Below, one piece after another: positions 3,516 to 63,222 of a stretch of DNA of 64,000 nucleotides (position 1 is the stretch's first letter; each line of letters opens with the position of its first letter). Under the pieces are notes generated by a model. It ran no database searches and was not told where the DNA came from. It saw only the letters and a program-made list of their open reading frames with translations. This DNA comes from Spirochaetia bacterium (lineage in GTDB: Bacteria; Spirochaetota; Spirochaetia; SZUA-6; Bin103). A program made the position numbers and the translations under genes. The stretch spans positions 320,001 through 384,000 of the forward strand of contig CBDBOV010000005.1 of the NCBI GenBank assembly GCA_965208575.1, written 5' to 3'.

Positions 3516-3650
3516 CCGCGGCACCATCGATCCGCGCGGCACACAGCCGTGCGTGTGGCGGCGGACCGCGTCGGCCGCAACCTCCACCAGTCTACATCAA
3601 CCGGCGTTGCCGGCACTTCAGTAGAGAGGGGCACATCTGCGCCCGACCGA

Positions 3651-3820
3651 GGGGGTGCAAAATGATACTCAAAGAGCCGCACGCGCGCGGCGTGAGCCGG
3701 GGTGAACCCGGTGAGTCACACGCCGCGCGCTTCACAAATCTGACTCTGTCTGGCCGGCCGTCTGCGTTGCGGGCGCGAGAGTAGCCAGGGAGCGGCAATC
3801 CGCTCCGCAATACTCTCAAG
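3651..3820 (+). promoter_or_regulatory. Conserved structured leader motif A (copy 1)
   Basis: Closely similar to 16883-17045(-) and 37702-37870; stems GCGCGCGGCGTG/CACGCCGCGCGC and GAGAGTA/TACTCTC. Confidence 0.7.
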
Positions 3821-3842
3821 AACACATTTTATGGAGAAAACC

Positions 3843-9296: not shown

Positions 9297-9657
9297 CGCG
9301 CGCCGCTAGCCGCTCAGCCGACCGAGCCGCGGGCGACCGCCCGGTGCCGGTGCTGAGCGCGGCAGCATCGATCCGTGTGGCGCACAGCCGCCACGCATCC
9401 GTGCGTCCTAGCGGCCGACCCCGTCGGCCGCCACTTCCACCAGTCCAGACCAGCATGCGTAGCGCCGCTTGCCGGCCGCCACGCGTGGCGTGCGCAGGCA
9501 TGCCCTTTCGGCGCGGCGCACGGGCGTCAAGGAGGTACGGCCTAGAGGATTAACGTAGAGACCGGGCGGCCGCGGACGCGAAGGGTGTCGCCCTCGCTCG
9601 ACTGAGGGAGCAGGCGAGGGGCCGGCAGTGGCAACAGCGCTCTCGAAGGAGATCTCA

Positions 9658-11451
9658 ATGAGGTTTTTCAAAACAGGCCTCGCGATAGTGTGCGGTCTCA
9701 TGCTGACCGCGACCGGCCTCTGGGCCGCTGGCGCAGACGAGGAGGAGCCGGCAGTCTCTGCCGACAGAGAGACGGTGTTCGACCCCGCCACCGGCAAGAC
9801 GTGGACCGCGCCAGAGTATGGCGGGACAATCACGTGGGCACATAAGCGCTTTCCTAAGAGCGCTGACGTGTGGGAGGTTGGTGGCTGGGGGCCTCACTTC
9901 GTCAGTGGCGTTAATGAGAAGCTATCCTTCGCCGACTGGGGACTATCCAGGGAAGAGCACTTTGACCTATACATCATTGTGACCCCAGAGATGACGAGAG
10001 GGAATCTGGCTGAAAGCTGGTCGCAACCCGACGCCACAACGTTCATTTGGAACATCCGCCAGGGCGTTAACTGGGACAATAAGGCGCCGGTGAACGGTCG
10101 GGAGTTCGATGCTCATGACGTCGTATGGAACTATCACCGCTATTTTGGTCTGGGCGATTTCACCGAAGTCGGACCTAGCCCCCAGAGTCGTGGTATTGGT
10201 CAGGGTGTAGAGATCGAATCGGCAAGGGCCACCGACAAATGGACGGTTGAGATTAAACACAAGCCTGCCCCCGGTGTGCTGGGGAAGATGCTCCACAACG
10301 TGTTTTTTGTGTACGCGCCCGAGGTAGTCGAGAAAGACGGCGGCGCTGCGGATTGGCGGAACGTGGTCGGCACCGGGCCCTATCGACTGACTGAGCACGT
10401 CGAGGGCAGCTCGGCAACCTGGGAGAAGAATCCTAACTACTGGGCCTACGACGAAAAATTCCCGCAGAACCGCCTGCCCTATATTGACACGTTAAGGTCC
10501 CTGGTGATACCGGAGAGCTCAGCACGTCTGGCGGCAATGCGCACGGGAAAGATTGATATGCTGAGTAACACCGGCGACGCTTTTATAACGAGTATCGACG
10601 ATGTAGAGAGCCTCCAGAAGACCAACCCTGAAATCGAGGTGTGGCCCCGTTATAGCTGGATAACGGGCCCTTCCATTTTTAACCAGTCTCTGCCGCTCAT
10701 GCAGGACGTCAATGTGCGCAAGGCACTGCAGATGTCAGTGGACCGCGAGACAATTTCTGCTACCTTCTTTAAGGGTTGGGCAGATCCAGCACCTTATGGT
10801 TTGGTACATCAAGGTTCTAAAGGGTGGGCCTGGCCATATGAAGACTGGCCCGAAGAGGTCAGGGCAGGCTATAGGTATGACCCGGCAGGGGCAGAAGCGT
10901 TGCTTGATGCGGCTGGACATCCGCGCGGCTCCGACGGATATAGATTCACGGTCAAGCTAGGCCATTTCGACAGGTACGACCCGGCCTATGCAGAAATCGT
11001 CATCGGGTACTTCGACGCCATTGGCGTTAAAGGCGAGCTTGCTATTCTGACTGACGCTGAGGTGAGACCTCTCAACGCGGCGGACACGCACGAGTTTCAC
11101 TTAATGAATAATGCATATGGGACTTTGTCCCCCTCCTTATATGTACAGAGAATAACACGATTTGGTGATGATGACTACGCCAAAGCGAATGACCCGCGAA
11201 TGGATGCCCTGGTTGCCGCCATGCAAAATCCTACCACCCTGGAGGAGTGGCAGGGCTATTATCGACAGGCCGATGAGATCGCTATAAGGGAGCACTGGGG
11301 CCTAATTAAGTCCAACGCCCCTAAGTTTAGCTTGAGCCAGCCGTGGGTCGAGGGTTATTCCGGTGAATTTGGTATGGGATGGGGTGAACGTAATACCTTC
11401 ATGGCCCGCCTCTGGATTGATAGTGAGCTAAAGGAATCAATGGGTCATTAG
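9658..11451 (+). CDS. ABC substrate-binding protein family 5 (SBP2)
   Basis: Close paralogue of SBP1; AAGGAG RBS before ATG 9658. Confidence 0.95.
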   Translation: MRFFKTGLAIVCGLMLTATGLWAAGADEEEPAVSADRETVFDPATGKTWTAPEYGGTITWAHKRFPKSADVWEVGGWGPHFVSGVNEKLSFADWGLSREEHFDLYIIVTPEMTRGNLAESWSQPDATTFIWNIRQGVNWDNKAPVNGREFDAHDVVWNYHRYFGLGDFTEVGPSPQSRGIGQGVEIESARATDKWTVEIKHKPAPGVLGKMLHNVFFVYAPEVVEKDGGAADWRNVVGTGPYRLTEHVEGSSATWEKNPNYWAYDEKFPQNRLPYIDTLRSLVIPESSARLAAMRTGKIDMLSNTGDAFITSIDDVESLQKTNPEIEVWPRYSWITGPSIFNQSLPLMQDVNVRKALQMSVDRETISATFFKGWADPAPYGLVHQGSKGWAWPYEDWPEEVRAGYRYDPAGAEALLDAAGHPRGSDGYRFTVKLGHFDRYDPAYAEIVIGYFDAIGVKGELAILTDAEVRPLNAADTHEFHLMNNAYGTLSPSLYVQRITRFGDDDYAKANDPRMDALVAAMQNPTTLEEWQGYYRQADEIAIREHWGLIKSNAPKFSLSQPWVEGYSGEFGMGWGERNTFMARLWIDSELKESMGH

Positions 11452-16882: not shown

Positions 16883-17045
16883 ATTTGAGAGTATTGCGTA
16901 GCGGGCTTGCCGCTTCCTGGCTACTCTCGCGCCCGCAACGCGGGCGGCCAGACAGAGTCGAATTCACCAAAGCGCGCGGCGTGTGACTCAACGGGGGTCA
17001 CGCCGCGCGCGCGTGCGGCTCTTTGAGTATCATTTTGCACCTCCA
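16883..17045 (-). promoter_or_regulatory. Conserved structured leader motif A (copy 2)
   Basis: Reverse complement matches 3651-3820; shorter loop in the long hairpin. Confidence 0.7.
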
Positions 17046-17306
17046 TTTTCTGTAGACCGCTCGGCGGACGTCGGGACCTGCGTCACAACGCCACGCGGGG
17101 TCGTGGTCGGCGAAGCACCGCGTCTGAATAGCCGGCAACGCCGGCGGAGGGTCTTGCCGGGAGTCAGTCGCGGGCGGGGTTCCGGCACGGCTGCGGTCGC
17201 CGCGAAGGGCGCGAAGGGCGCGGGCGGTCCGCATGCCGGTTCGGCGGTGGTGAAGGCGACGGCGTGCGCGGGGTCGCGTACGGGGCGATCAGCCGGAGCG
17301 GTTAGT

Positions 17307-48368: not shown

Positions 48369-49694
48369 TCAAGGATCGTCGGCGAACCGCAGCGCGTCGG
48401 GCAGCGCGTACAAGGGTATGTTGAGCACCCGAGCGTCGTGCTTCAGGTTCAACAGGGTGCTGCGCACCAGCAGCGGCGGGGCGAACTGGGAGTCGAACGA
48501 CCGCAGGCTCTTGCTGCGCGGGTTGACGCCGGACTTCACCTCCAGCGGCACAACCTCGCCGCTTCGCTCCAGCAGGAAGTCGACTTCCGCCTTGCCCCCG
48601 GAACTGCGCCAATAGTGCAAGTCGCCGGCCGCCGCCGCGGCCAGTTGCTGCGCAACGTAGTTCTCGACCAGCGCTCCCCGGTACTCGGCGAACAGGCGGT
48701 CGCCGTGCACCAGCAGCTCGGGCGCGGCCCCGGCGAGCGCGCCGAGCAGGCCGACGTCCAGCGCGTACACCTTGAACGATCTCCGGTCCGCGTAGCCGCG
48801 CAACGGCAGCCGGGCCGTCTCGACGCCGAACGCCCGCAGGATCAGCCCGGCGCCCTCCAGCCACACGACGGCATCTTCGTAATCGCGCGCCCGCGCGCTC
48901 GGACGGATAGCCGAAAACATGAACTTCTTGTTCTCGCGCGCCAGGTGTCCCGGCAGCGAATCCCAGACCGCGATGATGCGCGCCACCTCGCGCGCGGGGG
49001 CATGCTTGGCGAAGTCGAGCACGTAGGCATCGAGGATCGCCTGCTGCACGGTTCGCACCTCCGCAGGGTTCTGGTTGTCCCGGTTGGCGGCGTAGCGGGC
49101 GACCGCCTCGGGCATGCCGCCGACGAAATAGTAGGCGCGCAACAGGTCGACCAGGACGGTGTGGAACGCTTCGGGGAACGGCTCGGGCAGCGCGTGTTCC
49201 TCGATCAGTTTCCGGTAGCGCCCCGCGCCGACCGCATCGAGGAACTCGAGGAAGGTCATCGGATGCAGGTCCACGAAGTCCACCTTGCCCACCGGGAACG
49301 AACGCGGTGTCGAGAGGGCGACACCGAGCAGCGAGCCGGCGGCGGCGACATGGTACTGGGGCGCGTCCTCGGCGAAGTACTTCAGCGAGTTCAGCGCCGC
49401 GTTGCACGCCTGGATTTCGTCGAGGATGAGCAGCGAGCCGCCGGGCACAATCCGTTCTCCCGCGAACACCGAAAGGTCGCGGACGATGCGCATGGGATCG
49501 AGGTCGCGCTCGAACAGGCTGGCGAGAGCGGGCGTCTGCTCGAAGTTGAAGTAGTGACTGGCCGCGTACCGCTCCCGGCCGAAGGCGCGCAGCAGATAGG
49601 TCTTGCCGGTCTGGCGCGCACCGCGCATCAGCAGCGGCTTGCGCCCCGGCGCGTCGCTCCAGGTCAGCAACTCCTCGTACGCATCACGCTTCAT
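48369..49694 (-). CDS. AAA_14 ATPase with DUF4143 domain
   Basis: GARQTGKT, LDEIQ, VGGMP, DVGLL, EVDFL, PLEVKSG. Confidence 0.93.
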   Translation of the reverse strand: MKRDAYEELLTWSDAPGRKPLLMRGARQTGKTYLLRAFGRERYAASHYFNFEQTPALASLFERDLDPMRIVRDLSVFAGERIVPGGSLLILDEIQACNAALNSLKYFAEDAPQYHVAAAGSLLGVALSTPRSFPVGKVDFVDLHPMTFLEFLDAVGAGRYRKLIEEHALPEPFPEAFHTVLVDLLRAYYFVGGMPEAVARYAANRDNQNPAEVRTVQQAILDAYVLDFAKHAPAREVARIIAVWDSLPGHLARENKKFMFSAIRPSARARDYEDAVVWLEGAGLILRAFGVETARLPLRGYADRRSFKVYALDVGLLGALAGAAPELLVHGDRLFAEYRGALVENYVAQQLAAAAAGDLHYWRSSGGKAEVDFLLERSGEVVPLEVKSGVNPRSKSLRSFDSQFAPPLLVRSTLLNLKHDARVLNIPLYALPDALRFADDP

Positions 49695-49866
49695 GGACGC
49701 CCACAATAGAACGAAAACGGCGATTATGTCACATAATACAGACGTATTTCTGGCAATTGAGGCCGTTATACGTCCTAATAACGTGTAAACACATAGTAAC
49801 GCCGACCGTCCGTTCCGGTAAAGCCGCCGGAACAATCAACAGCAATCAAATCGAGAGCTGATGCCG

Positions 49867-51941: not shown

Positions 51942-53771
51942 TCAGAATCCCATTTCTCGCTTCAGATCCTGGTCGATCCAGAGGCGGGCGAGGATGGGAT
52001 GATACGTCAGGTCTCCTAGCGAGTATTCACCGTTATAGCCCTTGACCCACGGATTGTTCGCCTGAAACTGTGGCGCCAGAGGACCCCAAATCTGCATGTG
52101 TTGCTCGAGCACGAACATATTGTACGCTTTCGCTGCCTCGAACTGCTCCTCTTTGGTCGTAGCAGCGTAATAGGCATCGGAGGCCGCGTCCAGCACGGAG
52201 GTGTCGATTGCGCATGGGTCGCTACAGGCCAAGTATTCGCGGGGGAACAGATTGCTATCGCGATGAGTCTGCATGGCCCAGACAGCAGCCGGATGGCCCA
52301 TGTCGCCAGTGGCCATTTCATACGCGGTTTCTGCCTTGGCAGCCACCCAAGTCCCCGTGTCGGCAATACGGGTCGTTATATCAACGCCAATATCAGCCCA
52401 GTACCCGGCGGCGACTTCCGTATAGCCCAAGTCTATGACGTCTCGGTGCAAATACTCTGCCGTGAATCGAATTCCGTCCGCGCCGCGCGGATAGCCTGCC
52501 TCATCCAGGAGCTTCTCGGCACCCTCCGGGTCATACCTGTAGTATTGCTGGAGCTCTTCTGGCCACTCTTCAAATGGGGTGTAGTGCCCCTTGGCGCTAA
52601 TCCACGCAGGGTCTTCCCAGTCTGAAAAACCGCCAAAGTAGGTATCGTCAATCGTCTCCAGATCGAGTGCCATCTGCAGTGCGTGGCGCACCCTGACGTC
52701 GTCAAATGGCGCGTTGCGAATGTTCAGAGTAAAGACCTGAAACGCCCGCTGGTAGTAACTGTACACCTCGATTTCCGGGTTGGTCCTCTGGATGCTCCTT
52801 ATCACGTCCATGTTTCCTATGTCAGCGACCCCTGCGTGTTGTATGATATCAATCTTACCCGTACGCAGTGCCGAGATACGGGTTGCTTCTTCTGCCATGA
52901 GGGGGGCCCTTATCTCGTCAACATAGGGCAAGCGGTTCTCCGGGTATTTCTCGTCGTAGTCCCAGAAGTCAGGATTCCTGGTAAAGGTCTTGGAGACGCC
53001 CTCGACATACTCGGTCAGGATAAGAGGCCCGGTGCCGACCACGTTCTTCCAGTCCTCATAGTTGCCGTAATGCTCGATTACGTCGCGGGGTAGTATCCAA
53101 CTCTGGCTTTCACCGAGGATCGGTTGTAGCGCATCGAGGTATGGCTCAGTGAGCTTCATAACAACCGTATATCTGTCGGTGGCCTCTATCGATTCCCATG
53201 GCAGGTTGAACGTGGGGCCGGCCTGAGCGGGAGGTTCGGTGAAGTCCCCCTGAGCGGTCTGGCGCTGATAGGAATAGACGACATCATCGGCGGTCAGCTC
53301 CCGACCGTTTACCAACCGACTGGCCTCACTGTCCGGATCAAGAGCGTAGTGAACGCCCTGGCGGATGTGAAAGACGTAGGTCACCGGGTCGGGCGTCTCC
53401 CAGCTTTCCGCCAGATTCCCGGTCAGGACGTGGGTAGGAACGAAATTGTCCGTCCAGTCGAATACTTCCCTATCCAGTGCCCAGTCCCCGATGGCGAGCT
53501 TCTCATTGACACCGTCTATGAGCCAGCCCGCTTCGAAGCCAACAGCAAAGGGGTCTACATTGTCGCTTACCCTACCACCCCAGCCGTAGGTCAGTGTCCC
53601 GCCGTACTCCGGCGCGGTCACCATCTTTCCGGTGGCGGGGTCCATCACCATTTCCTTCTCCATGGCGGCTGCCGGCTCCTGTTCGGCGGCCGGGCTTGCC
53701 CACAGGCCGGTCGCGGCCACACCGAAACCGATCAGTACCGCCAGGGTCTTTCGCAAGACTGCGTATTGCAT
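51942..53771 (-). CDS. ABC substrate-binding protein family 5 (SBP6)
   Basis: MQYAVLRK...TGLWASP; AGGAGG RBS; family motifs. Confidence 0.95.
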   Translation of the reverse strand: MQYAVLRKTLAVLIGFGVAATGLWASPAAEQEPAAAMEKEMVMDPATGKMVTAPEYGGTLTYGWGGRVSDNVDPFAVGFEAGWLIDGVNEKLAIGDWALDREVFDWTDNFVPTHVLTGNLAESWETPDPVTYVFHIRQGVHYALDPDSEASRLVNGRELTADDVVYSYQRQTAQGDFTEPPAQAGPTFNLPWESIEATDRYTVVMKLTEPYLDALQPILGESQSWILPRDVIEHYGNYEDWKNVVGTGPLILTEYVEGVSKTFTRNPDFWDYDEKYPENRLPYVDEIRAPLMAEEATRISALRTGKIDIIQHAGVADIGNMDVIRSIQRTNPEIEVYSYYQRAFQVFTLNIRNAPFDDVRVRHALQMALDLETIDDTYFGGFSDWEDPAWISAKGHYTPFEEWPEELQQYYRYDPEGAEKLLDEAGYPRGADGIRFTAEYLHRDVIDLGYTEVAAGYWADIGVDITTRIADTGTWVAAKAETAYEMATGDMGHPAAVWAMQTHRDSNLFPREYLACSDPCAIDTSVLDAASDAYYAATTKEEQFEAAKAYNMFVLEQHMQIWGPLAPQFQANNPWVKGYNGEYSLGDLTYHPILARLWIDQDLKREMGF

Positions 53772-54263
53772 CTTTGCCTCCTGCAATTCGAGAGTGCCGG
53801 TCTCACTGTGCATCCGTCGCCCACTCTCGACGCGCACCGGCAATCTCCGGTGCCCGGAAAGCGACGGCGACAGCCCCGAGCTACATCGACATCCGGCACC
53901 TCCTTGAACGCGCGCGCGGACCTGAGCCCGGAGCACCGCGTGAGGCGGTGTGCTGCGGCGTAGCGAAAGTCAGGGACCGGCAACGTCGGCGGTGCGGTGT
54001 GCAGGCGGTCGGAGGAGCGGCGGTGCGGCCGAAGCGGCGCGCGGGGCGATCAGCCGGAGCGACTATTGCTTGTGATTCAGGTATTTGCCGGGGGGGGGTA
54101 GGACACACCGGGTCCCGTTAACCGGTGGCGTCCTCAAGTGCCTGTGGTATTGCATCGTCCACATAAGCCTGTTCTCCGACAGAGGGGCATCATAAGCCAC
54201 GCGCAACGGGCTGTCAAATCGCGCGGAGCACGACCCTGCGGCACTGCTCAATCCGCGAAGATC
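53772..54263 (-). promoter_or_regulatory. Conserved leader type B (copy 1): promoter, uORF, structured RNA
   Basis: TTGACA(54217-54212)-N17-TATGAT(54194-54189); highly similar to 58843-59343 and 62764-63222. Confidence 0.8.
54063..54164 (-). CDS. Putative leader peptide of SBP6
   Basis: MWTMQYHRHLRTPPVNGTRCVLPPPGKYLNHKQ*; frame conserved in three copies. Confidence 0.55.
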   Translation of the reverse strand: MWTMQYHRHLRTPPVNGTRCVLPPPGKYLNHKQ

Positions 54264-54510
54264 TCGTGAAACGGAGTTTGGTACGGGAGGAGTATTCCGG
54301 TGGTAACGCTCGTCGTGCAAGGACACTACTCGGTCGTCCGATCCGTTCGCGTCCGTCTGCCCGTTGCCAACTCGCGACCCGTTCGAGTCCCAACCTCGAT
54401 GCCCGTGCACACGCGCGGCGGGCGGTCAAGCGCCTTCAGCACGCGTTCTCTCTTGACCTCTTGACCGCGCCATCTGCCCTCTGTTCGATGCAACATGCTA
54501 CACTGCAGCC

Positions 54511-54765
54511 ATGATCAGCCGTGGCATTCGCGCCTATATGGCTCGCGAGTGGCGAACGGCGCGTGCTGCCAAGGACGCGTATTGGGCCGAGCGCATCGCC
54601 CGTTGCGGACCGCTGGAAGGACTGCGCATCGCCGACGAGTTGCGCAGGCAAGCACTGCTGCACAACCCGGAATGGCCGGATGCCGCCGCCCGGAAGCAGG
54701 ACCTCCTCGCTCACATACGCTTGGCCGAGTTGTTCACCCGTGCCGATTCCACCCGCCGCAGTTGA
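54511..54765 (+). CDS. Small hypothetical protein, probable antitoxin-like partner
   Basis: 84 aa, overlaps the downstream nucleotidyltransferase. Confidence 0.65.
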   Translation: MISRGIRAYMAREWRTARAAKDAYWAERIARCGPLEGLRIADELRRQALLHNPEWPDAAARKQDLLAHIRLAELFTRADSTRRS

Positions 54766-55330
54766 ACTGCTGACCGCACTGGCAAAGGTGCTCGCTGGCC
54801 GCGGGAGCTGGTACGTGTTCGGCGCCCAGGCAGTGATCGCGTACGGCGTGCCCCGTTTGAGCGCCGACGTCGACGTCACCGTCAGGCTGGAACCTGACGA
54901 TCCACAGCGGTTCGCATCCGCGATGCAGGCGGCGGGGTTCGTCTTGCGTGTCGAGGATCCGGAGTTCATCCGCCGGACTCGGGTGATGCCGTTCGTGCAC
55001 GCCGCCACCGGCATGCCGCTGGACATCGTGCTGGCAGGATCCGGACTGGAGGACGAATTCCTCCAGCGCACCCGGACGGTGGACCTCGGCGGCACGGCTG
55101 TCCCGTTGATCGCTCTCCAGGACCTCATCATTGCCAAGCTTCTCGCCAGCCGCCCCCAGGATCTCGCCGACGCGCAGAGCCTGTGGCGCATCCACGGGCA
55201 CAGCCTCGACGTACACTCGATTCGTCGGACACTGCGCTTGCTCGAAGAGGCGCTGGATCAAAGCGACCTGCTGCCGAGCTTCGACTCGATTCGCAGGACG
55301 GCCCGTGACGGGGAGCAATCGCCCCTGTAG
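54740..55330 (+). CDS. Nucleotidyltransferase (DUF6036-like)
   Basis: WYVFGAQAV..YG.PR.SADVD, DLIIAK...RPQDLAD. Confidence 0.82.
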   Translation: MPIPPAAVELLTALAKVLAGRGSWYVFGAQAVIAYGVPRLSADVDVTVRLEPDDPQRFASAMQAAGFVLRVEDPEFIRRTRVMPFVHAATGMPLDIVLAGSGLEDEFLQRTRTVDLGGTAVPLIALQDLIIAKLLASRPQDLADAQSLWRIHGHSLDVHSIRRTLRLLEEALDQSDLLPSFDSIRRTARDGEQSPL

Positions 55331-55384
55331 TGAGCAGCAACAGCAGCCCCGGGAACGCCATCAAGGCGTCCACGAAGCGCTGCG

Positions 55385-55669
55385 TCACCGGATCCAGCCG
55401 GCGAGGTCGCCTTCCACCAGCGACTCGATCAGCTTGCCCCACTGCCCGTTGAACAGCTCGTCCAGCTTGTACATGCGCCGGTCGGCTGCGCGTGTCTGCC
55501 GCGTGATCAGTTCATCGGTCGCCTGCAACCGCCGGTCGGTCTCCTGCATTTGGCGGTCGGTCGCCTGCATGCGCCGCTCAGCCTCCTGCTGCGCTGCGGA
55601 GATCTCCCGGAGAATCTCCCAGATCTCCTGCGGGGTCGCGGGTTCGCTGTGTCCGTTGCGGTCGGTCAT
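55385..55669 (-). pseudogene. Truncated coiled-coil protein (DUF3782/PD-(D/E)XK-associated N-terminus)
   Basis: ETDRR-type heptads then GQWGKLIESLVEGDL, after which it runs into permease-derived sequence. Confidence 0.65.
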
Positions 55670-55759
55670 CGGTACGCTCGCTCATCCCATTGTGGAGCAG
55701 ACCGACCGTTCCGGTAAAGCCGCCGGAGCAATCAAGCAATCAATCGAGAGTCGACTCCT

Positions 55760-55865
55760 CTACTTCTCGGCCGGCGCCTGCGCGGCCGAGGCGGCCGCGC
55801 AGGCGGGCGTCCAGCAGGTCGCGCACCGCGTCGCCGACCGGCGTCCGCGGTGATACGTCACCCAC
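55760..55865 (-). pseudogene. Internally deleted DppC-like permease
   Basis: 5' start (GTGGGTGACGTATCA) fused at ~55837 to the 3' end GDAVRDLLDARLRGRLGR; compare 49867-50811. Confidence 0.85.
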
Positions 55866-55874
55866 GAGCGCACC

Positions 55875-56831
55875 TCATTCGTAGCGGATGCGCGGGTCCA
55901 GCGACGCGTACAGCAGGTCGGTCAGCAGGTTGACCAACACCACCACCATGGCGAAGAACAGATTCACCGCCGATACCACCGGGTAGTCGCGGTCGCCCAG
56001 CGCGTCCAGCATCAGCCGCCCCAGCCCCGGCAGGTTGAAGATGTTCTCGATGATCACCGAGCCGCCCACCAGGATCGGCAGCTGCATGCCCACCAGCGTC
56101 ACCACCGGGATGATGGCGTTCTTCACCGCGTGGCGCAGGATCACCGACCGCTCCAGCAGACCCTTGGCCCAGGCCGTGCGAATGTAGTCCTGGCGCAGCA
56201 CCTCCAGCATCATGGTGCGCGTCATGCGCATGGTGCTGGCCGACAGGTAGGTCCCGAGGATCAGGCTGGGGATGAGGAACATGCGGAGATTGCCCAGTGG
56301 GTCCTGGGCGAACGGCACCAGTTCCATCGGTGGCGACCAGGTCCACCAGATGGCGGGGTAGATCATCACCATGGTTCCCAGCCAGAAGTTGGGCGTCGCC
56401 AGCCCCATGATGGCCACCGACCGTCCCACGTAGTCGGCGACGGTGTACTGGCGCACCGCCGAGTAGATGCCTACCGGCAGGGCGATGACCAGGCCGATGA
56501 GAATGGCCAGCAGCCCGAGCTCGGCGGTGACCGGCAGTCGTACCAGCATGCGCTCCTCGATGCGCCAACCGCCAAGCAGCGACTCGCCGAGGGTGCCGCG
56601 CAGCAAAATATCTCCGATCCAGCGTCCATACTGCACGTAGACAGGCACGTCTAATCCCAGCATGCGCTCAAGAGCTTCACGGTCAACTTCGCCGCCGACA
56701 GATAACATACGACCGGCCATGATGCCGATGACGTCGCCTGGGAGGAAGCGGACCGACAGGAACACCAACACGCTCAGAATGAACAACGTGGGGATGACCA
56801 GCAGCAGCCGCCGGATGATGTAGGCTCTCAT
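55875..56831 (-). CDS. DppB/OppB-like permease
   Basis: Close paralogue of 50821-51777. Confidence 0.95.
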   Translation of the reverse strand: MRAYIIRRLLLVIPTLFILSVLVFLSVRFLPGDVIGIMAGRMLSVGGEVDREALERMLGLDVPVYVQYGRWIGDILLRGTLGESLLGGWRIEERMLVRLPVTAELGLLAILIGLVIALPVGIYSAVRQYTVADYVGRSVAIMGLATPNFWLGTMVMIYPAIWWTWSPPMELVPFAQDPLGNLRMFLIPSLILGTYLSASTMRMTRTMMLEVLRQDYIRTAWAKGLLERSVILRHAVKNAIIPVVTLVGMQLPILVGGSVIIENIFNLPGLGRLMLDALGDRDYPVVSAVNLFFAMVVVLVNLLTDLLYASLDPRIRYE

Positions 56832-57003
56832 ATCCTCGTGGCAAACAAAATGGGCGCCGGGAAGCTCAAGGCTCCCGGCGCCATTCTCTGCAGGTAGAAC
56901 AAGTGCGAAACGCTCGCGGACCCCGCTGACAGCTAGGCGTGGTCCCGGCTCGTGGAATCGCGCAGCGACTCCCGTTTCACTCGCCCAAGGGCGATTGACT
57001 TGC

Positions 57004-58842
57004 TCAGAATCCCATTTCTTCCTTTAGATCTTGGTCAATCCAAAGGTGGATGAGGACGCTCTTTGTTCCCGCATCCAGCACGTCCATTTCGCCGTTCCAG
57101 CCTTTCACCCACGGCTGGGCCAGCTGATAAAACGGAGCCATGGGAGGCCAAATCTGATTGTGCTGCTTTATCCCGAGCATATCAAACTCTTTGAATGCCC
57201 TCTGCTGCTCCTCAAGGGTGGTAGCGGCGAAAAAGGCTTCATAGGCGGCGGTCATCTCAGCGGTCTCGACATACCCGCCGATGTAATCGCGGCTAAATGG
57301 GCTCTCATCGCGATACCAGGCCATCAACTTTGAAGGGGCGAGATTAAAGCCCATGTCGCCAGTGGACATCTCATAGACAAGCTCTCCTGTATCACTGAAC
57401 GCCGAATGGCCCCTCCGACCGGCCCACGTAGCCGTGTCAACTATATTGATCGTTACATCAACGCCAATCGCAGCCCAGTAGCTTATGGCCACCTCTGGCC
57501 AGCCAATATCCCAGACATCGCGGTGGTCATAGGTGACCTTGAATCGAACGCCTTCCGCGCCGCGCGGATATCCAGCCTCATCGAGGAGCTTCTCGGCACC
57601 TTCCGGGTCATAGCGCCAGTATTGCTTGACCTCCTCGGGCCACTCTTCAAATGGGCTTCTATACTCCGGGAAGGCAAACCCTATCATCCCCATGGGTTCA
57701 GGCCTTGCGAAACCGCCAAAGAAGGTATCGTTAATCGTCTCGAGGTCCAGTGCCATCTGCATAGCGTGGCGTACCCTGACGTCGTCAAAAGGCGGCTTGT
57801 ACATGTTCAGTATGAAAGCACCACTCCCCCGCAGAAAATAGGGGCCCACCTGGATGTCGGGGTTGGTATTCTGGAGGCTCCTCAAAACGTCGCGGGATGT
57901 TATGGCAGCGCCGCCGCCGCCGGCGAAATGTATCATATCAACCTTACCCGTGCGTAGCGCCGCGATACGTGTTGCTTCTTCTTCCATATGCAGGCCCCGC
58001 AGCTTGTCAATATAGGGCAAGCGGTTCTCCGGGTATTTTGGGTCGTGGCCCCAGTAGTCAGGATTCTTGTCCCAGGTAGTCGAGACGCCTTCGACATAGT
58101 CAGTCAGCATAATGGGTCCGGTGCCGACCACGTTTCTCCAGTCCTTATAGTGGCCGTATTGCTCAATTACCTCGGGGGGCAGTATCCAACCCTGTTGGTC
58201 GGCGTGGATCGCCGTCAGCGCAGTGAGGTATGGTTCGGTCAGCTTGAATACAACCGTATATTTGTCGCTGGCCTCTATCGATTGCCATGGCAGGTTGATC
58301 AACTCGTAAGTCTGGAGGGGACGTTCGGTGAAGTCGCCTAGAACTACATTACGCTGAAAGGTATACACGACATCATCGGCAGTTAGCTCTCGACCATTCA
58401 TCGGTGGCTTATCATGCCAGTGAACGCCCTGGCGGATTTTGAAGATAATAGTTAGTGGGTCGGGCTGCTCCCAGCTTTCCGCCAGCCACCCTCTAGTTGC
58501 AGCTTCAATAAAGGTGAATGAGGTGGAAAAGTCCCATACGTCCCTATCTATTGCCCAGTCCCCCCAGGCGAGCTTCTCATTAACGGTACCGATCAGGTAT
58601 TCAACAGGGTGGCCAGTAATAAAGGGGTCACTAGTGTCGCTCACTGCTTTGTAGGGATAGGTTAGTGTTCCGCCATACTCCGGCGCGGTCACCACCTTGC
58701 CGGTGGCAGGGTCCATCACCATTTCCTTGTCCATGGCGGCGGCGGGCTCCTCTTCCCCGGCCGGGCTTGCCCACAGGCCGGTCGCGGCCAGACCGAGACC
58801 GATCAGTACCGCCAGTATCCTTCGCAAGATTGCATATTGCAT
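57004..58842 (-). CDS. ABC substrate-binding protein family 5 (SBP7)
   Basis: MQYAILRR...TGLWASP; family motifs. Confidence 0.95.
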   Translation of the reverse strand: MQYAILRRILAVLIGLGLAATGLWASPAGEEEPAAAMDKEMVMDPATGKVVTAPEYGGTLTYPYKAVSDTSDPFITGHPVEYLIGTVNEKLAWGDWAIDRDVWDFSTSFTFIEAATRGWLAESWEQPDPLTIIFKIRQGVHWHDKPPMNGRELTADDVVYTFQRNVVLGDFTERPLQTYELINLPWQSIEASDKYTVVFKLTEPYLTALTAIHADQQGWILPPEVIEQYGHYKDWRNVVGTGPIMLTDYVEGVSTTWDKNPDYWGHDPKYPENRLPYIDKLRGLHMEEEATRIAALRTGKVDMIHFAGGGGAAITSRDVLRSLQNTNPDIQVGPYFLRGSGAFILNMYKPPFDDVRVRHAMQMALDLETINDTFFGGFARPEPMGMIGFAFPEYRSPFEEWPEEVKQYWRYDPEGAEKLLDEAGYPRGAEGVRFKVTYDHRDVWDIGWPEVAISYWAAIGVDVTINIVDTATWAGRRGHSAFSDTGELVYEMSTGDMGFNLAPSKLMAWYRDESPFSRDYIGGYVETAEMTAAYEAFFAATTLEEQQRAFKEFDMLGIKQHNQIWPPMAPFYQLAQPWVKGWNGEMDVLDAGTKSVLIHLWIDQDLKEEMGF

Positions 58843-59343
58843 CTTTGCCTCCTGCAATCCGAGAGTGCTGGTCTCACTGTGCATCCGTCGCCCACTCTCG
58901 AGGCGCACCGGCAATCTCCGGTGCCCGGAAAGCGACGGCGACAGCCCCGAGCTACATCGAAATCCGGCACCTCCTTGATCGCGCGCGCGGACCTGAGCCC
59001 GGAGCACCGCATGAGGCGGTGTGCTGCGGCGTAGCGAAAGTCAGGGACCGGCAACGCCGGCGGTGCGGTGTGCAGGTGGTAAGAGGAACGGTGCAGGCGA
59101 AGCGGCGCGCGGGGCTATCGGCCGGAGCGATTATTGCTTGTGATTCAAGTATTTGCCGGAGGGGGGGTAGGACACACCAATCCCGTCAACCGGTGGCGTC
59201 CTCAAGTGCTTCTGGTAGTGCATCGTCCACATAAGCCTTTTCGCCGACAGGAGGGCCAAGTCTATTCCACGCGCAACGAGCTGTCAAATCGCGCGGAGCA
59301 CGACGAGCACGACCCTGCCGCGCTGCTCAATCCGCGAAGATCT
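58843..59343 (-). promoter_or_regulatory. Conserved leader type B (copy 2)
   Basis: TTGACA(59287-59282)-N17-TAGACT(59264-59259). Confidence 0.8.
59131..59232 (-). CDS. Putative leader peptide of SBP7
   Basis: MWTMHYQKHLRTPPVDGIGVSYPPSGKYLNHKQ*. Confidence 0.55.
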   Translation of the reverse strand: MWTMHYQKHLRTPPVDGIGVSYPPSGKYLNHKQ

Positions 59344-59495
59344 TGTTGGTGTCGAGGTTCAGTCCCGCCAACAGCGGCGATGTCGGGCGCTGCCCTTCCG
59401 GGTAGCGCTGCACCGGCTCGAAGTCATGCTGGGCGAGCGCCAGCACCTCGATGGTGCGAGCTTCGGCTACCACCCAGTACTCGGCCACGCCGTCT
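59327..59495 (-). pseudogene. C-terminal fragment of Uma2 (DUF820) endonuclease
   Basis: GVAEYWVV...RTIEVLAL...SPLLAGLNLD..KIF. Confidence 0.8.
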
Positions 59496-59514
59496 TGCTT
59501 TCCCGGTGCAATCA

Positions 59515-59557
59515 GACATATTGTTACCACTTATAAATCAAGTGGAGACAATTTGTC
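59515..59557. promoter_or_regulatory. Inverted-repeat operator upstream of AbiEi
   Basis: GACATATTGTTACCACTT-N7-AAGTGGAGACAATTTGTC (15/18 match). Confidence 0.7.
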
Positions 59558-59568
59558 TGAGCCGGACC

Positions 59569-60162
59569 ATGCAAGAACGACCTGAAGAGATCTTCCGCCG
59601 GCACGGCGGCCAGCTCCGCATGAGCGAAGCCCTGGCGCACGGGATGACGCGCTACACCCTCTATGCGCTGAGGGACCGGGGCGTTGTCGAGCTGGTGAGC
59701 CGGGGCATCTACCGGCTGGTGGAACTGCCTCCCATTGGCAACCCGGACCTGGTCACGGTGAGCCTACGCTTCCCGAACGCCGTGATCTGTCTCGTCTCCG
59801 CGCTGGCCTTTCACGACATCACGACCCAGATCCCCCATGAGGTCTCCGTGGCGGTGCCACGGGCATCGCGTGTGCCGTCGCTGGACTATCCGCCCGTCCG
59901 GGCGTACCGATTCTCCGCGGAAACCTACCGACCCGGCATCGAAGCCCATCGCATCGATGGCGCGACGGTAAAGGTCTACAACAGCGGGAAGACCCTGGTC
60001 GACTGCTTCAAGTTCCGCAACAAGATCGGCATGGACGTGGTGCTGGAGGCGCTCAAACTCCACAAGGAACGAAACGGCTTCGATGTTCGGGTACTGCTTG
60101 GCTACGCCAAGGTCTGCCGGATGGAGAAGGTGATGCGGCCCTATCTGGAGGCCACCGTATGA
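59569..60162 (+). CDS. Type IV TA antitoxin AbiEi family
   Basis: RGIYRL, ICLVSALAFHDITTQIP, KTLVDCFKFRNKIG. Confidence 0.92.
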   Translation: MQERPEEIFRRHGGQLRMSEALAHGMTRYTLYALRDRGVVELVSRGIYRLVELPPIGNPDLVTVSLRFPNAVICLVSALAFHDITTQIPHEVSVAVPRASRVPSLDYPPVRAYRFSAETYRPGIEAHRIDGATVKVYNSGKTLVDCFKFRNKIGMDVVLEALKLHKERNGFDVRVLLGYAKVCRMEKVMRPYLEATV

Positions 60163-60678
60163 CGGCACTCCGCAACGTACCCGCGTCGGTGCGGCAACGA
60201 CGTCGGGTACGGCGACGTGGTATATCCCGCACCCGAGGCGGCGGACCTTCCGACCATGCTGGACTTCCCGGCGCCGCGGCTGCTCTGCTACAGCCGCGAA
60301 TCCTGCATTGCGGAAAAGCTCGAAGCCGCGGTCAAGCTCGGCATGCTGAACAGCCGGATGAAGGACTTCTACGACATCTGGCTGCTGTCCCGTCAGTTCG
60401 ACTTCGATGGGTCCGAGTTGGCCGCGGGCATTCGGCGCACTTTCGAGCGTCGGGGAACGGCGCTTCCCGTGGCAATCGAGGCATTCACCCAGCCCTTCAT
60501 CGATTCCAAGCAGATTCGATGGATGGCGTTCCGGAACAGGCTCCAGTAGGATCATGTCCCCGCCTCGTTCACCGACATTGTGGCCGCGATGGCCGGCTTC
60601 CTGTCGCCCATCGTCGCGGCCGTTTCCTCCCGCCAACCCGTTCCGAACCACTGGACCGCACCCGGCCCGTGGACCTGA
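60159..60678 (+). pseudogene. AbiEii nucleotidyltransferase toxin, deleted and interrupted
   Basis: Start NVPASVRQR jumps out of frame to DVGYGDVV..AEKLEA..NSRMKDFYD; premature TAG at 60547; residual frame ends at 60678. Confidence 0.85.
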
Positions 60679-60974
60679 GTGTCCGGTGTCTGCGCGCCCT
60701 CCTGGCGGGCGGTGAGGCGTACCCGGATGCGACCCGCTGGCTCGTCACGCTTGACTTCCGCGCCGCGGCGCCTGCCGGACACCGTGAAACTGGGCGGCCG
60801 CGCCCAGTTGGCTGCTCGAAGACTGGTGATCCTGACCCGGGCGGCGCCGTAGCGGCCGAGGCGGCCGCGCAGGCGCCGCAGGCGGGGGTCCACCAAGCCG
60901 AGCGCCGCTGCAATGCAAGTCGGCGCAGGCGCGCCAGGCGCGCCTGCAATGGAACCCGCCCCTGGGCGGTTTCC

Positions 60975-62763
60975 TCAGAATCCCATTTCTCGCTTCAGAT
61001 CCTGGTCAATCCAGAGGCGGGCGAGGATGGTATGAAACAGAAAGTTTCCCATCCTGGTTTCACCGTTAAAACCTTTCACCCACGGTTGGCTGGCCTGATA
61101 ACTTGGAGCCAGAGGAAGCCCTATGTTATTGTGCTGCGTCATTAACGCCATACCAAACTGTTTTGCCGCCATTATCTGATCATCGATGCTGGTGGCGGCG
61201 AAAAAGGCAGCTTGGGCGGCGGCCAGATCAGGGTTCTCGACTCCGCCCATCCATTCACTTTGGTAAGGGACCTCGGAGCCATACGCCGACATGCTCGGGG
61301 TCGGGATCTCCCTGGCCATGGCGCCATAAATCGACTCATAGTTTTGTTCTGACCAATAACCGGTCAAAGTCCCCCAGTCGGCCGTACCAATCGTTACATC
61401 AACGCCAATATCATCCCAGTAGCCGGCGGCTATTTCTATAATGCCCAGATCTGCGATGTCGCGGTGCAGATGTTCGAACTTGAAGCGGACGCCGTCGGCG
61501 CCGCGCGGATATCCTGCCTCATCAAGGAGCCTCTCCGCACCTTCCGGGTCGTAGGTGTAGTATTGCTTGAGTTCTTCGGGCCACTCTTCCCATTCGGTGT
61601 AATACCCCTTGGCGCCAAGGTAGCGAGGTGGGTGCCACTGGGCGAAACCGCCATAGTAGGTATCGTTGATCGTCTCCAGGTCCAATGCCATCTGCAGTGC
61701 GTGGCGTACTCTGATGTCGTCAAAGGGGGCGTTGCGTATGTTCAGACTGAAAGCATCCGCCCGTTGGAAAAATGGCCATATCGCGATCTCGGGGTCGGTC
61801 CGCTGCAGGCTCCTTACCACGTCGATGGACTTTATCTCATTACCAGCGAGGCGTATCATATCAATCTTACCCGAGCGCAGTGCCGATAAGCGGGTCGCTT
61901 CTTCCGCTATATGCAGGGCCATCAGCTCGTCGACATAGGGCAGGCGGTTGTCCGGGTATTTTGGGTCGTAGCCCCAGTAGTCAGGATTCTTGGCATAGGT
62001 CTTGGAGACGCCTTCGACATAGTCAGTCAGAATGAGGGGCCCGGTGCCGACCACGTTCTGCCAATCCTTGTAGTCGCCGTATTGCTCGATTACCTCGGGG
62101 GGGTAATATCCAGAACAAGTGTTCGGCGATGATAGCCTCTAGCGCACCGAGGGAGGGCTCCATCAACTTCATGACAACCGTGTATTCGTCGGTGTCCTCG
62201 ATCGATTCCCATGGCAGATCGACAGCGGCAGTGGTACGTACAGGACGTTCGGTAAAGTCACCCTGAGCGGTAATGCGCTGATAGGTATAGACGACATCAT
62301 CGGCAGTGAGCTCGCGCCCGTTCACCGGTGCCTTGTTATGCCAGTGAACGCCCTGACGGATGTGAAAGACGTACGTTAGTGGGTCGGGCGTTTCCCAGCT
62401 TTCCGCCAGCTCCCCGGTGTAAGTAAACAGAGGAACGTAAGGCCCATCAAAGCCGAATTCTTTCCTATCCAGACCCCAGTCCCCGACGGCGAGTCTCTCA
62501 TTGACACCGTCTATGAGAAAGCCCGCATAGGCGCCGGCACTAAAGGGGTCGGCAGTTTCGCCAATCAAGACATACGAAACGATCAACGTCCCGCCGTACT
62601 CTGGCGCGGTCACCATCTTGCCGGTGGCGGGGTCCCTCACCATCTCCTTCTCCGTGGCGGCGGCCGGCTCCTCTTCGCTGGCCGGGCTTGCCCACAGGCC
62701 GGTGGCGGCCAGACCGAAACCGATCAGTACCGCCAGGATGTTTCGCAAGACTGCGTATTGCAT
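60975..62763 (-). pseudogene. ABC substrate-binding protein family 5 (SBP8), frameshifted in a homopolymer
   Basis: Two ORFs joined at G7 62097-62103; the paralogue SBP7 has G6 at the same WILPPEV position. Confidence 0.88.
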
Positions 62764-63222
62764 CTTTGTCTCCAAAAAATTCGAGAGTGCTGGTCTCGCT
62801 GTGCATCCGTCGCCCACTCTCGATGCGCACCGGACATCTCCGGTGCCCGGAAAGCGACGGCGCCAGCCCCGAGCTACATCGACATCCGGCACCTCCTTGA
62901 ACGCGCGCGCGGACCTGAGCCCGGAGCACCGCATGAGGCGGTGTGGCGAAAGTGAGGGACCGGCAACGCCGACGGTGCGGTGTGCAGGTGGTAAGAGGAG
63001 CGGTGCAGGCGAAGCGGCGCGCGGGGCGATCAGCCGGAGCGATTATTGCTTGTGATTCAAGTATATACCGGGGGGGGGGGGGTAGGACACACCTATCCCG
63101 TCAACCGGTGGCGTCCTCAAGTGCTTCTGGTATTGCACCGTGAACATAAGCCTTTTCGCCGACAGAGAACGAGTCTATTCCACGCGCAACGAGCTGTCAA
63201 GTCGCGCGGAGCACGACGAGCA
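62764..63222 (-). promoter_or_regulatory. Conserved leader type B (copy 3)
   Basis: TTGACA(63200-63195)-N17-TAGACT(63177-63172). Confidence 0.8.
63043..63147 (-). CDS. Putative leader peptide of SBP8
   Basis: MFTVQYQKHLRTPPVDGIGVSYPPPPGIYLNHKQ*; C13 tract. Confidence 0.55.
   Translation of the reverse strand: MFTVQYQKHLRTPPVDGIGVSYPPPPGIYLNHKQ

Follow-up and report, generated by a model that had tools for sequence, protein, structure and literature searches.

A predicted pseudoknot leader element of SBP_bac_5 binding-protein genes in a Spirochaetia lineage

The locus and its leader copies

The window analysed here is a 64-kb stretch (64,000 nucleotides) of the genome of a Spirochaetia bacterium (contig CBDBOV010000005.1, positions 320,001 to 384,000 of the forward strand), and the subject of this report is motif B, a structured leader element found directly upstream of SBP_bac_5 (PF00496) genes. 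These genes encode the peptide/nickel/opine-type binding proteins of ATP-binding cassette (ABC) transporters. Eight of them lie in the window (starts or open reading frames, ORFs, at 3831, 9628, 16861, 24503, 37755, 53771, 58842, and 62763) and at least 125-133 in the 6.5-Mb genome (G000), none of which reaches an NCBIfam equivalog cut-off. In the window, motif B occurs in three copies, all on the minus strand and all preceding SBP_bac_5 genes.

In copy 1 the whole pseudoknot domain, counted from the 5′ strand of helix P1a to the 3′ strand of helix P3, occupies 53786..53875 (covariance model match 53765-53908, 159.3 bits). Along the minus strand it consists of the P1a 5′ strand CUGU (53870..53873; CUGYCG in most of the family), the P1b 5′ strand CCGUCGC (53861..53867), the joining segment J1/2, UUUCCGG (53854..53860), the P2 hairpin GCACCGG-AGAUUG-CCGGUGC (53834..53853), the P3 5′ strand UCGAGAGUG (53822..53830), and, separated from it by one G, the P1b 3′ strand GCGACGG (53814..53820), followed by the P1a 3′ strand ACAG (53806..53809; CGGCAG in most of the family) and the P3 3′ strand CACUCUCGA (53788..53796). 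With the preceding CGC, J1/2 is complementary to the P3 5′ strand, giving a possible alternative helix, aP3. Downstream of the domain (53769..53782) come a Shine-Dalgarno sequence (SD), AGGAGG at 53782-53777, and the ATG at 53771-53769 of the gene 51942-53771. Upstream of it (53881..53905) lie a second SD, AAGGAGGUG at 53905-53897, and a mini-ORF, AUG UCG AUG UAG at 53892-53881, whose stop is 7 nt before P1a.

A sequence-only reading of this stretch had proposed a stem CCGTCGC/GCGACGG around a hairpin GCACCGG/CCGGTGC, with TCGAGAGTG inside the domain and its complement CACTCTCGA about 5-8 nt before the SD. All of these helices are present at the proposed places in each of the three copies, and the measured gap to the SD is 5 nt (copy 1, minus strand: CCGTCGC 53867-53861 and GCGACGG 53820-53814; GCACCGG 53853-53847 and CCGGTGC 53840-53834; TCGAGAGTG 53830-53822 and CACTCTCGA 53796-53788).

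Copies 2 and 3 carry the elements of copy 1 at matching places on the same strand. The copy 2 domain (58857..58946, 154.8 bits) comprises P1b at 58938-58932/58891-58885, P2 at 58924-58905, and P3 at 58901-58893/58867-58859, and is followed by an SD at 58853-58848 and the ATG at 58842; in its upstream SD and mini-ORF region (58952..58976) the first AUG has changed to AUU, leaving AUG UAG. The copy 3 domain (62779..62868, 152.7 bits), with P1b at 62860-62854/62813-62807, P2 at 62846-62827, and P3 at 62823-62815/62789-62781, lies between an upstream SD with the mini-ORF AUG UCG AUG UAG (62874..62898) and the SD UGGAGA (62774-62769) with the ATG at 62763.

Architecture and covariation of the pseudoknot

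Covariation was assessed in an alignment of 100 copies (97 distinct rows). The underlying covariance model was built from 34 copies on P2 and P3 only, so that the alignment was not fitted to P1. Over the 97 distinct copies, P1b, P2, and P3 are paired in 88.5% of cells, compared with 34-48% when the partner strands are slid against each other, and none of 500 shuffles reached the covariation score. Compensatory changes affect 7 of the 9 pairs of P3 (UCGAGAGUG/CACUCUCGA in copy 1), which takes forms such as GAGAGUG/CACUCUC, GAGAGUA/UACUCUC, GGGAGU/ACUCCC, and GAAAGC/GCUUUC; double changes are seen at 4 of the 7 pairs of P2. P1b is paired in 89% of cells and has double changes at one of its 7 pairs, which is C-G in 60 cells, G-C in 5, U-A in 4, U-G in 4, and unpaired in 23. 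The seemingly conserved loop GGCAG turned out, on reading the alignment, to be the 3′ strand of an additional helix, P1a (CUGYCG/CGGCAG), which is paired in 80.8% of cells (18-64% when slid) and shows double changes at 4 of 6 pairs. P1 as a whole comprises 13 bp in two parts, P1a and P1b, with a 2-nt bulge between them; the CCGTCGC/GCGACGG stem proposed earlier is real, but constitutes merely the inner half of this helix.

P1 closes a domain that contains the P2 hairpin and the 5′ strand of P3, and the 3′ strand of P3 lies outside it. The two helices thus interleave, as the sequence-only reading had suggested when it called the pairing pseudoknot-like, and each named helix is kept by compensatory or wobble changes, which supports the prediction that the domain folds as an H-type pseudoknot. 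Between the P3 5′ strand and the P1 3′ strand stands a single G, 98% conserved, and with so short a junction the two helices could stack. The other conserved unpaired positions are in J1/2 (U 92%, U 87%, and, further along, G 94%) and J2/3 (C 91%); J1/2 and the linking G are highly conserved although they are unpaired in the knot. The 3′ half of the domain, GGCGAGGGGCCGGCAG, is retained even in variants in which the 5′ half or P2 differs.

The same alignment bears on whether the conserved entity is RNA at all. A DNA operator made of inverted repeats could be imagined, given that P3 is palindromic on DNA, as could an N-terminal coding extension of the binding protein, given that each of the three window copies has about 55 open codons in frame ahead of the ATG. 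However, 159 of the 2,716 cells hold G-U pairs, which on DNA would be mismatches, and because of these cells pairing is better on the strand of the gene (86.9%) than on the opposite strand (81.0%); moreover, three interleaved repeats 25-110 nt apart are unlike operator half-sites. The coding extension is ruled out because 34 of 92 unique leaders contain an in-frame stop no more than 30 codons ahead of the start, from which it follows that the domain is not coding, and the SD, the ATG, and the signal peptide all come after the fold. An explanation outside the RNA level is therefore scarcely credible.

Searched as a whole at gathering scores, the window returned no match in Rfam 15. With permissive filters, the region 53650-54300 gave one match, to c-di-GMP-II-GAG, at 15.3 bits (gathering score 40) and an E-value of 5.7, which is the level of chance. 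The comparative evidence marks motif B as an RNA fold under selection, cis-acting and located in the 5′ leaders of SBP_bac_5 genes.

Distribution and gene linkage

The covariance model finds about 120 matches in 8 of the 24 genomes of the family, including 16 in the genome of the window, 41 in G001, and 32 in G005. At E <= 1e-4 the model matches 7 of the 92 genomes examined in the order, all of them in one genus (g1): the genome of the window and 6 of the 10 others in the genus, compared with none of 13 in the sister genus and none of 68 in other families. One weak match in the sister genus was counted as false, as no SBP gene lies behind it. Carrying genomes hold between 2 and 41 copies. BLAST detects 13 matches in the genome of the window and matches of 66-84% identity in 6 of the 10 other genomes of the genus. 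No match was obtained in a plasmid collection with the leader as query (megablast and blastn). A pattern scan of genome contigs (15 specified bases) returned at least 118 stretches from unrelated phyla, a chance-level and uninformative outcome. Metagenome contigs yielded no stretch with a first pattern and four with a second, one of which (L281) is a full model match at 109 bits.

Sponge metagenome runs contain small shares of this DNA stretch. In the contigs of four sponge metatranscriptome runs, searched at 90% likeness, most of the leader is uncovered, and they are not used as evidence here; short contigs 90-95% alike touch 53840-53950, and a loose end of one resembles the mini-ORF region of a relative. 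These contigs stem from relatives or paralogues, possibly through DNA carry-over, and their ends and strand are unreadable.

The element is tightly linked to one gene family. Of the 100 aligned matches, 97 are followed by a long ORF that begins where the model ends, and 96 of these 97 ORFs encode PF00496 proteins on the same strand. Dispersed repeats of the repetitive extragenic palindrome (REP) or miniature inverted-repeat transposable element (MITE) kind are indifferent to the neighboring gene and its orientation, which the copies of motif B are not. The proteins behind the leader share 36-66% identity, and the domain stays about 70% identical where they share 36-47%; when copies are compared pairwise, similarity is higher in the domain than in the mature coding sequence for 86% of 4,558 pairs. 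Conservation is likewise higher over the first 45 codons than over the remainder of the gene.

This last feature could be taken to mean that the leader is a passenger, with copies alike merely because promoter, leader, and signal peptide were recently duplicated or converted together as a 5′ cassette, and with helices that are accidental. The block shared by the window copies, which begins about 470 nt upstream and extends about 170 nt into the coding sequence, has 88-98% identity, compared with 40-88% for the rest of the gene, and it ends as sharply as a conversion tract. The sequence-only reading had itself named very recent duplication as the explanation that would undo it. Yet the copies in the six other genomes keep the helices through compensatory changes. 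Within the window, 7 columns of the 86-nt domain vary among the three copies, 5 of them among the 32 unpaired positions and 2 among the 54 paired ones (Fisher p = 0.10, a small sample), and one of the two paired-position changes preserves pairing (U-A to U-G). Accidental helices are accordingly very improbable. The element is a new, lineage-restricted, multi-copy leader with a predicted pseudoknot, tied to SBP_bac_5 genes; a full-text literature search found no description of it within the literature covered.

Motif A and other variants of the scaffold

Two further SBP_bac_5 genes of the window are preceded by motif A, in which a P3-type helix, GAGAGUA/UACUCUC, surrounds an inner hairpin. One copy lies at 3777..3817 on the plus strand before the gene 3831-5669, the other at 16887..16928 on the minus strand before the gene 15065-16861. 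The pattern GAGAGT-N10-40-ACTCTC occurs five times in the window (0.05 expected; none of 100 shuffles reaches five), these sites being the three copies of motif B and the two of motif A. The 8-mer CACTCTCG alone is not enriched in the window (6 found, 3.4 expected). A divergent fourth member, a variant that lacks P2, lies at 9526..9667 on the plus strand (34.8 bits, E 7e-7) before the SBP_bac_5 gene that ends at 11451.

At the scale of the genome, 45 of 125 SBP genes have an NCUCYC 6-mer 8-45 nt before the start and its exact complement 25-30 nt further upstream. GAGAGY-N20-35-RCTCTC gives 112 hits over both strands, which, since the pattern is its own reverse complement, amount to about 56 sites; 44 of these lie within 60 nt upstream of an SBP start. 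The interiors of the genome sites are of the motif-B type in about 21 cases and of the motif-A type, AGCCAGGGAGCGGCAAUCCGCUCCGCAAU, in 23. By eye, the motif-A interior AGCCAGGGAGCGGCAAUCCGCUCCGCAAU aligns with the family core GGCGAGGGGCCGGCAGU. In 11 of the 23 motif-A sites, GCCAGG, directly after the P3 5′ strand, has a 6-bp partner 18-45 nt upstream (0-3 when slid), and a hairpin with a GUU loop lies between the two strands. The interleaved layout is the same as in motif B, so that the two motifs are, as their predicted pairing indicates, variants of one pseudoknot scaffold, of which P2-less forms also exist. The sequence-only reading had placed the same GAGAGT/ACTCTC helix beside the ribosome-binding site (RBS) of motif A, and this holds; its view that the helix sits on different upstream domains does not.

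The motif A leaders (3640-3770, plus; 16940-17060, minus) carry a different upstream ORF, MILKEPHAR..., which runs into a long GCGCGCGGCGUG.../...CACGCCGCGCGC hairpin; the length of this ORF varies between the two window copies.

The mini-ORF and the upstream leader

In the motif B copies, a strong SD (AAGGAGGUG) and its mini-ORF are located about 100 nt before the main start, the ORF reading MSM* (asterisk, stop codon) in copies 1 and 3 and AUG-UAG in copy 2. Motif-B-type leaders contain mini-ORFs that range from a start-stop to three codons (M*, MSM*, MSK*, MQK*, MQN*, MEN*, MRN*), and in most of them GGAGG stands 5-7 nt from AUG, GUG, or UUG and the distance from the stop to P1a is 7-14 nt. 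The ORF nearest the SD is AUG/UUG/GUG-UAG in about 20 of the 100 listed leaders, and also in window copy 2 after the loss of its first AUG. Leaders L206 (G005:C3:886219-887851), L191, L203, and L174 contain 2-4 tandem GUAGGAYG-like units that form successive start-stops or mini-ORFs, the number of units being variable.

Other subfamilies have ORFs of 6-8 codons with a conserved end (MxPKTGYD*, MKSPYD*, MQILTVYG*), the stop of which is 33-82 nt before P1a. Such ORFs with a conserved C-terminal end were noted in leaders L215-L226, L228, L234, L238, L242, L244, L261, and L266. The conserved ends look like a constraint at the level of the peptide, hinting at a possible arrest or sensor peptide.

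Further upstream, a near-consensus sigma-70-type promoter-like site, TTGACA-17-TATGAT (11 of 12 positions), is present at 54217-54189 on the minus strand; if it is used, the leader is about 400 nt long. Copy 2 retains the TTGACA, and its -10 hexamer is replaced by AATAGA. The leader also contains a CCGGCGUUGCCGG hairpin and a run of C, consisting of 9 C in copy 1 (54090-54098, minus), 7 C, T, and CC in copy 2 (near 59163-59175), and 13 C in copy 3 (near 63068-63080). The C run lies about 90 nt downstream of the promoter-like site, and a C-rich stretch is found in the leader as well. Runs of C slip easily, and this one could be a phase-variable element.

These features might serve transcriptional control, with the C-rich, G-poor stretch and the C run as loading sites for Rho, and with read-through decided by the knot, the mini-ORF ribosome, or both, as in tna, mgtA, and corA. 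The long untranslated leader with its C run and C-rich segment would suit this, as does the result that no intrinsic terminator was found when the leader was searched for one. The knot, however, is placed at the extreme 3′ end of the leader, touching the RBS, and this points to initiation instead; control through Rho is improbable.

Spacing, alternative folding, and proposed mode of action

The distance between the end of P3 and the SD core is narrowly distributed in most of 96 leaders: 4-6 nt in 61, 0-3 nt in 4, 7 nt in 2, and 11-20 nt in 29. The domain has a possible second fold, formed when J1/2 (CGCUUUC) takes the P3 5′ strand as its partner. In folding predictions for RNA that stops short of the P3 3′ strand, J1/2 is the chief partner of the P3 5′ strand in 47 of 85 unique domains. 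For copy 1 the energies of this rod (-43.2 kcal/mol) and of the knot (-29.5 kcal/mol for P1 and P2, plus about -13 for P3, before any knot penalty) are close.

Further pairings suggest themselves in these leaders. In an alignment of 40 motif-B leaders the upstream SD, GGAGGUG, could pair both with J1/2 (CGCUUUC) and with J2/3 plus the start of P3 (UACCUC), and UCACUC just 3′ of the CCGGCGUUGCCGG hairpin could do so with GAGUGG in the P3 5′ strand. A candidate helix enclosing the mini-ORF is visible by eye. The pairings of the upstream SD and of UCACUC may be alternative pairings or G+C-rich background; in an unbiased helix scan, those of the upstream SD with J1/2 and J2/3 were indistinguishable from that background.

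The fold most likely sets the translation level of the binding-protein genes. As to how, the reading to which we tentatively lean is that the upstream mini-ORF would drive a switch whose output stage is this fold, acting on translation initiation. Because P3 ends 4-6 nt before the SD, the folded knot would leave the 30S subunit a very short landing (standby) site, just about 5 single-stranded nt 5′ of the SD. A ribosome that initiates and terminates on the strong-SD mini-ORF would sit on or beside the P1 5′ strand and open P1. The domain could then refold to the rod, in which J1/2 pairs with the P3 5′ strand, thereby freeing the P3 3′ strand and lengthening the single-stranded landing site. 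Loading of ribosomes upstream would in this way raise translation of the binding protein, the direction of the effect being a guess.

Several observations weigh against such a switch. The main SD and start are outside all conserved helices, and masking of the main SD is not seen. The P3 3′ strand was considered as an anti-SD, the simplest logic for the expression platform that the sequence-only reading had suggested, and rejected, as it is the best partner of the SD in only 11 of 89 unique leaders and ranks tenth or lower in 42. P1b, part of the helix that the ribosome would open, is supported by one covarying pair, itself unpaired in 23 of 96 cells. The rod is not universal, the truncated RNA leaving the P3 5′ strand free in 34 of 85 domains. 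At the upstream end, a start-stop ORF cannot sense a signal through its nascent peptide, the stops at 33-82 nt from P1a are too distant for direct contact between ribosome and P1, and in some subfamilies the leader scan found no SD-led ORF.

An alternative is a constitutive structural element that does not switch, protecting the 5′ part of the mRNA after processing of the leader or keeping the A/U-rich RBS from pairing with the long G+C-rich leader, so that all paralogues would have a reliable RBS. In its favor are the high stability of the knot, the position of the SD and start beyond every conserved helix, and the leader of about 400 nt that transcription from the promoter-like site at 54217-54189 would give. 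Such a role leaves unexplained why a mini-ORF with a strong SD is conserved just before P1, why J1/2 conserves its potential to pair with P3, and why the spacing to the SD is held to 4-6 nt; we regard it as unlikely.

Comparison with known regulatory leaders

The H-type pseudoknot riboswitches SAM-II (RF00521) and preQ1-II (RF01054) lie beside the SD. Motif B resembles them in being a compact H-type pseudoknot placed at the RBS of genes for transport or metabolism, its stems nearly coaxial with 0-1 nt between them, and it likewise has two interleaved helices kept by covariation (P3 at 7 of 9 pairs, P1a at 4 of 6, P1b at 1 of 7). It differs in that the SD is not drawn into a helix, the SD core lying 4-6 nt (61 of 96 leaders) or further (31 of 96) after P3 and outside the knot, in the 13-bp stem 1, in the P2 hairpin within loop 1, in the preceding strong-SD mini-ORF, and in its confinement to one genus.

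This likeness raises the possibility that the pseudoknot is an aptamer (riboswitch) or a protein operator beside the RBS, so that a trans-acting factor and not the mini-ORF ribosome would set the translation of dozens of uptake operons. The strong conservation of unpaired positions (the linking G, J1/2, and J2/3) and the retention of the 3′ half GGCGAGGGGCCGGCAG where the 5′ half or P2 is altered would fit a binding site. The presence of up to 41 copies per genome would fit too, as some riboswitch classes have many copies per genome. Against it, no Rfam family matches, the SD is outside the fold, and most of the 'conserved loop' is a strand of P1a, which leaves few candidate pocket residues; furthermore, binding proteins of 36-66% identity are unlikely to have one transported ligand in common. 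The aptamer or operator is on balance doubtful. With similar reserve, the fold itself may be the sensor. It would then represent a class of riboswitch or ribosome-responsive RNA not described before and restricted to one genus of uncultured, probably sponge-associated bacteria, with a single RNA-level signal over a third of about 125 peptide-type uptake operons (45 of 125 carry the P3 helix) and exchangeable upstream ORF sensors on a common output stage.

The organization upstream of the gene invites comparison with translational attenuation in ermC, cat-86, and cmlA, in which a hairpin masks the SD and a nascent peptide together with a drug stalls the ribosome. In both, a short SD-led leader ORF precedes a structure that extends to the SD of the gene and can pair in alternative ways. 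In motif B, by contrast, no conserved helix covers the SD, which is unmasked, and the ORF can be a bare AUG-stop. The Escherichia coli operators rpsO/S15 and alpha operon/S4 similarly place a pseudoknot at the 5′ edge of the ribosome-binding site. These pseudoknots, which control 30S initiation, include the SD and AUG and are bound by the protein that the mRNA encodes. Autoregulation of that kind is unlikely for motif B, whose gene product is a periplasmic binding protein. Like tnaC, mgtL/mgtA, and corL/corA, the arrangement proposed for motif B has translation of a leader ORF reshape the leader and set downstream expression; unlike them, it has no intrinsic terminator that could be found.

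By sequence, the bare AUG-stop of window copy 2 is a start-stop minimal ORF, copies 1 and 3 having a three-codon ORF instead. The start-stop ORFs of E. coli yecJ and hslR are SD-led AUG-stops that bind ribosomes and modestly modulate the neighboring ORF; they are located within genes and out of frame (10.1101/520783). Those of motif B are in leaders, conserved across paralogues, and 7-9 nt before a pseudoknot. The Sinorhizobium cases of upstream ribosome-binding sites (uRBS) work through coupling by overlap or direct occlusion of the nearby RBS (PMC13285730). Neither mechanism fits here, where about 100 nt and the knot separate the mini-ORF from the gene.

Neighboring genes

Between copies 2 and 3, the plus strand carries an AbiEi antitoxin-type ORF (59134-60162) and an overlapping 328-aa ORF without a family match, together spanning 59134-61145. 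In the first operon, a 488-aa ORF for an AAA_14 + DUF4143 ATPase (48369-49835, minus) stands between the permease genes and an amidohydrolase gene, and no ABC ATPase gene was seen around it. The gene behind copy 3 is split into two ORFs (62023-62763 and 60975-62054). Since it is split and no permease genes follow it, this paralogue looks to be decaying while it keeps its leader.

Significance

Control by structured leaders beside the SD is known in kind, but the present leader corresponds to no RNA family described so far. A minimal start-stop ORF is joined here with a pseudoknot, and the whole is linked to one gene family that has undergone enormous expansion. Its natural variants (motif A, motif B, and the P2-less forms) amount to a ready-made mutational series. 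If the fold is indeed the sensor, start-stop, MQN*, MxPKTGYD*, MKSPYD*, and MILKEPHAR... would all be plugged into one pseudoknot, forming a modular regulon. If the element is regulatory, it would provide a natural test bed for the function of bacterial start-stop elements and would show the coordination, at the level of RNA, of a very large nutrient-uptake set in a symbiont.

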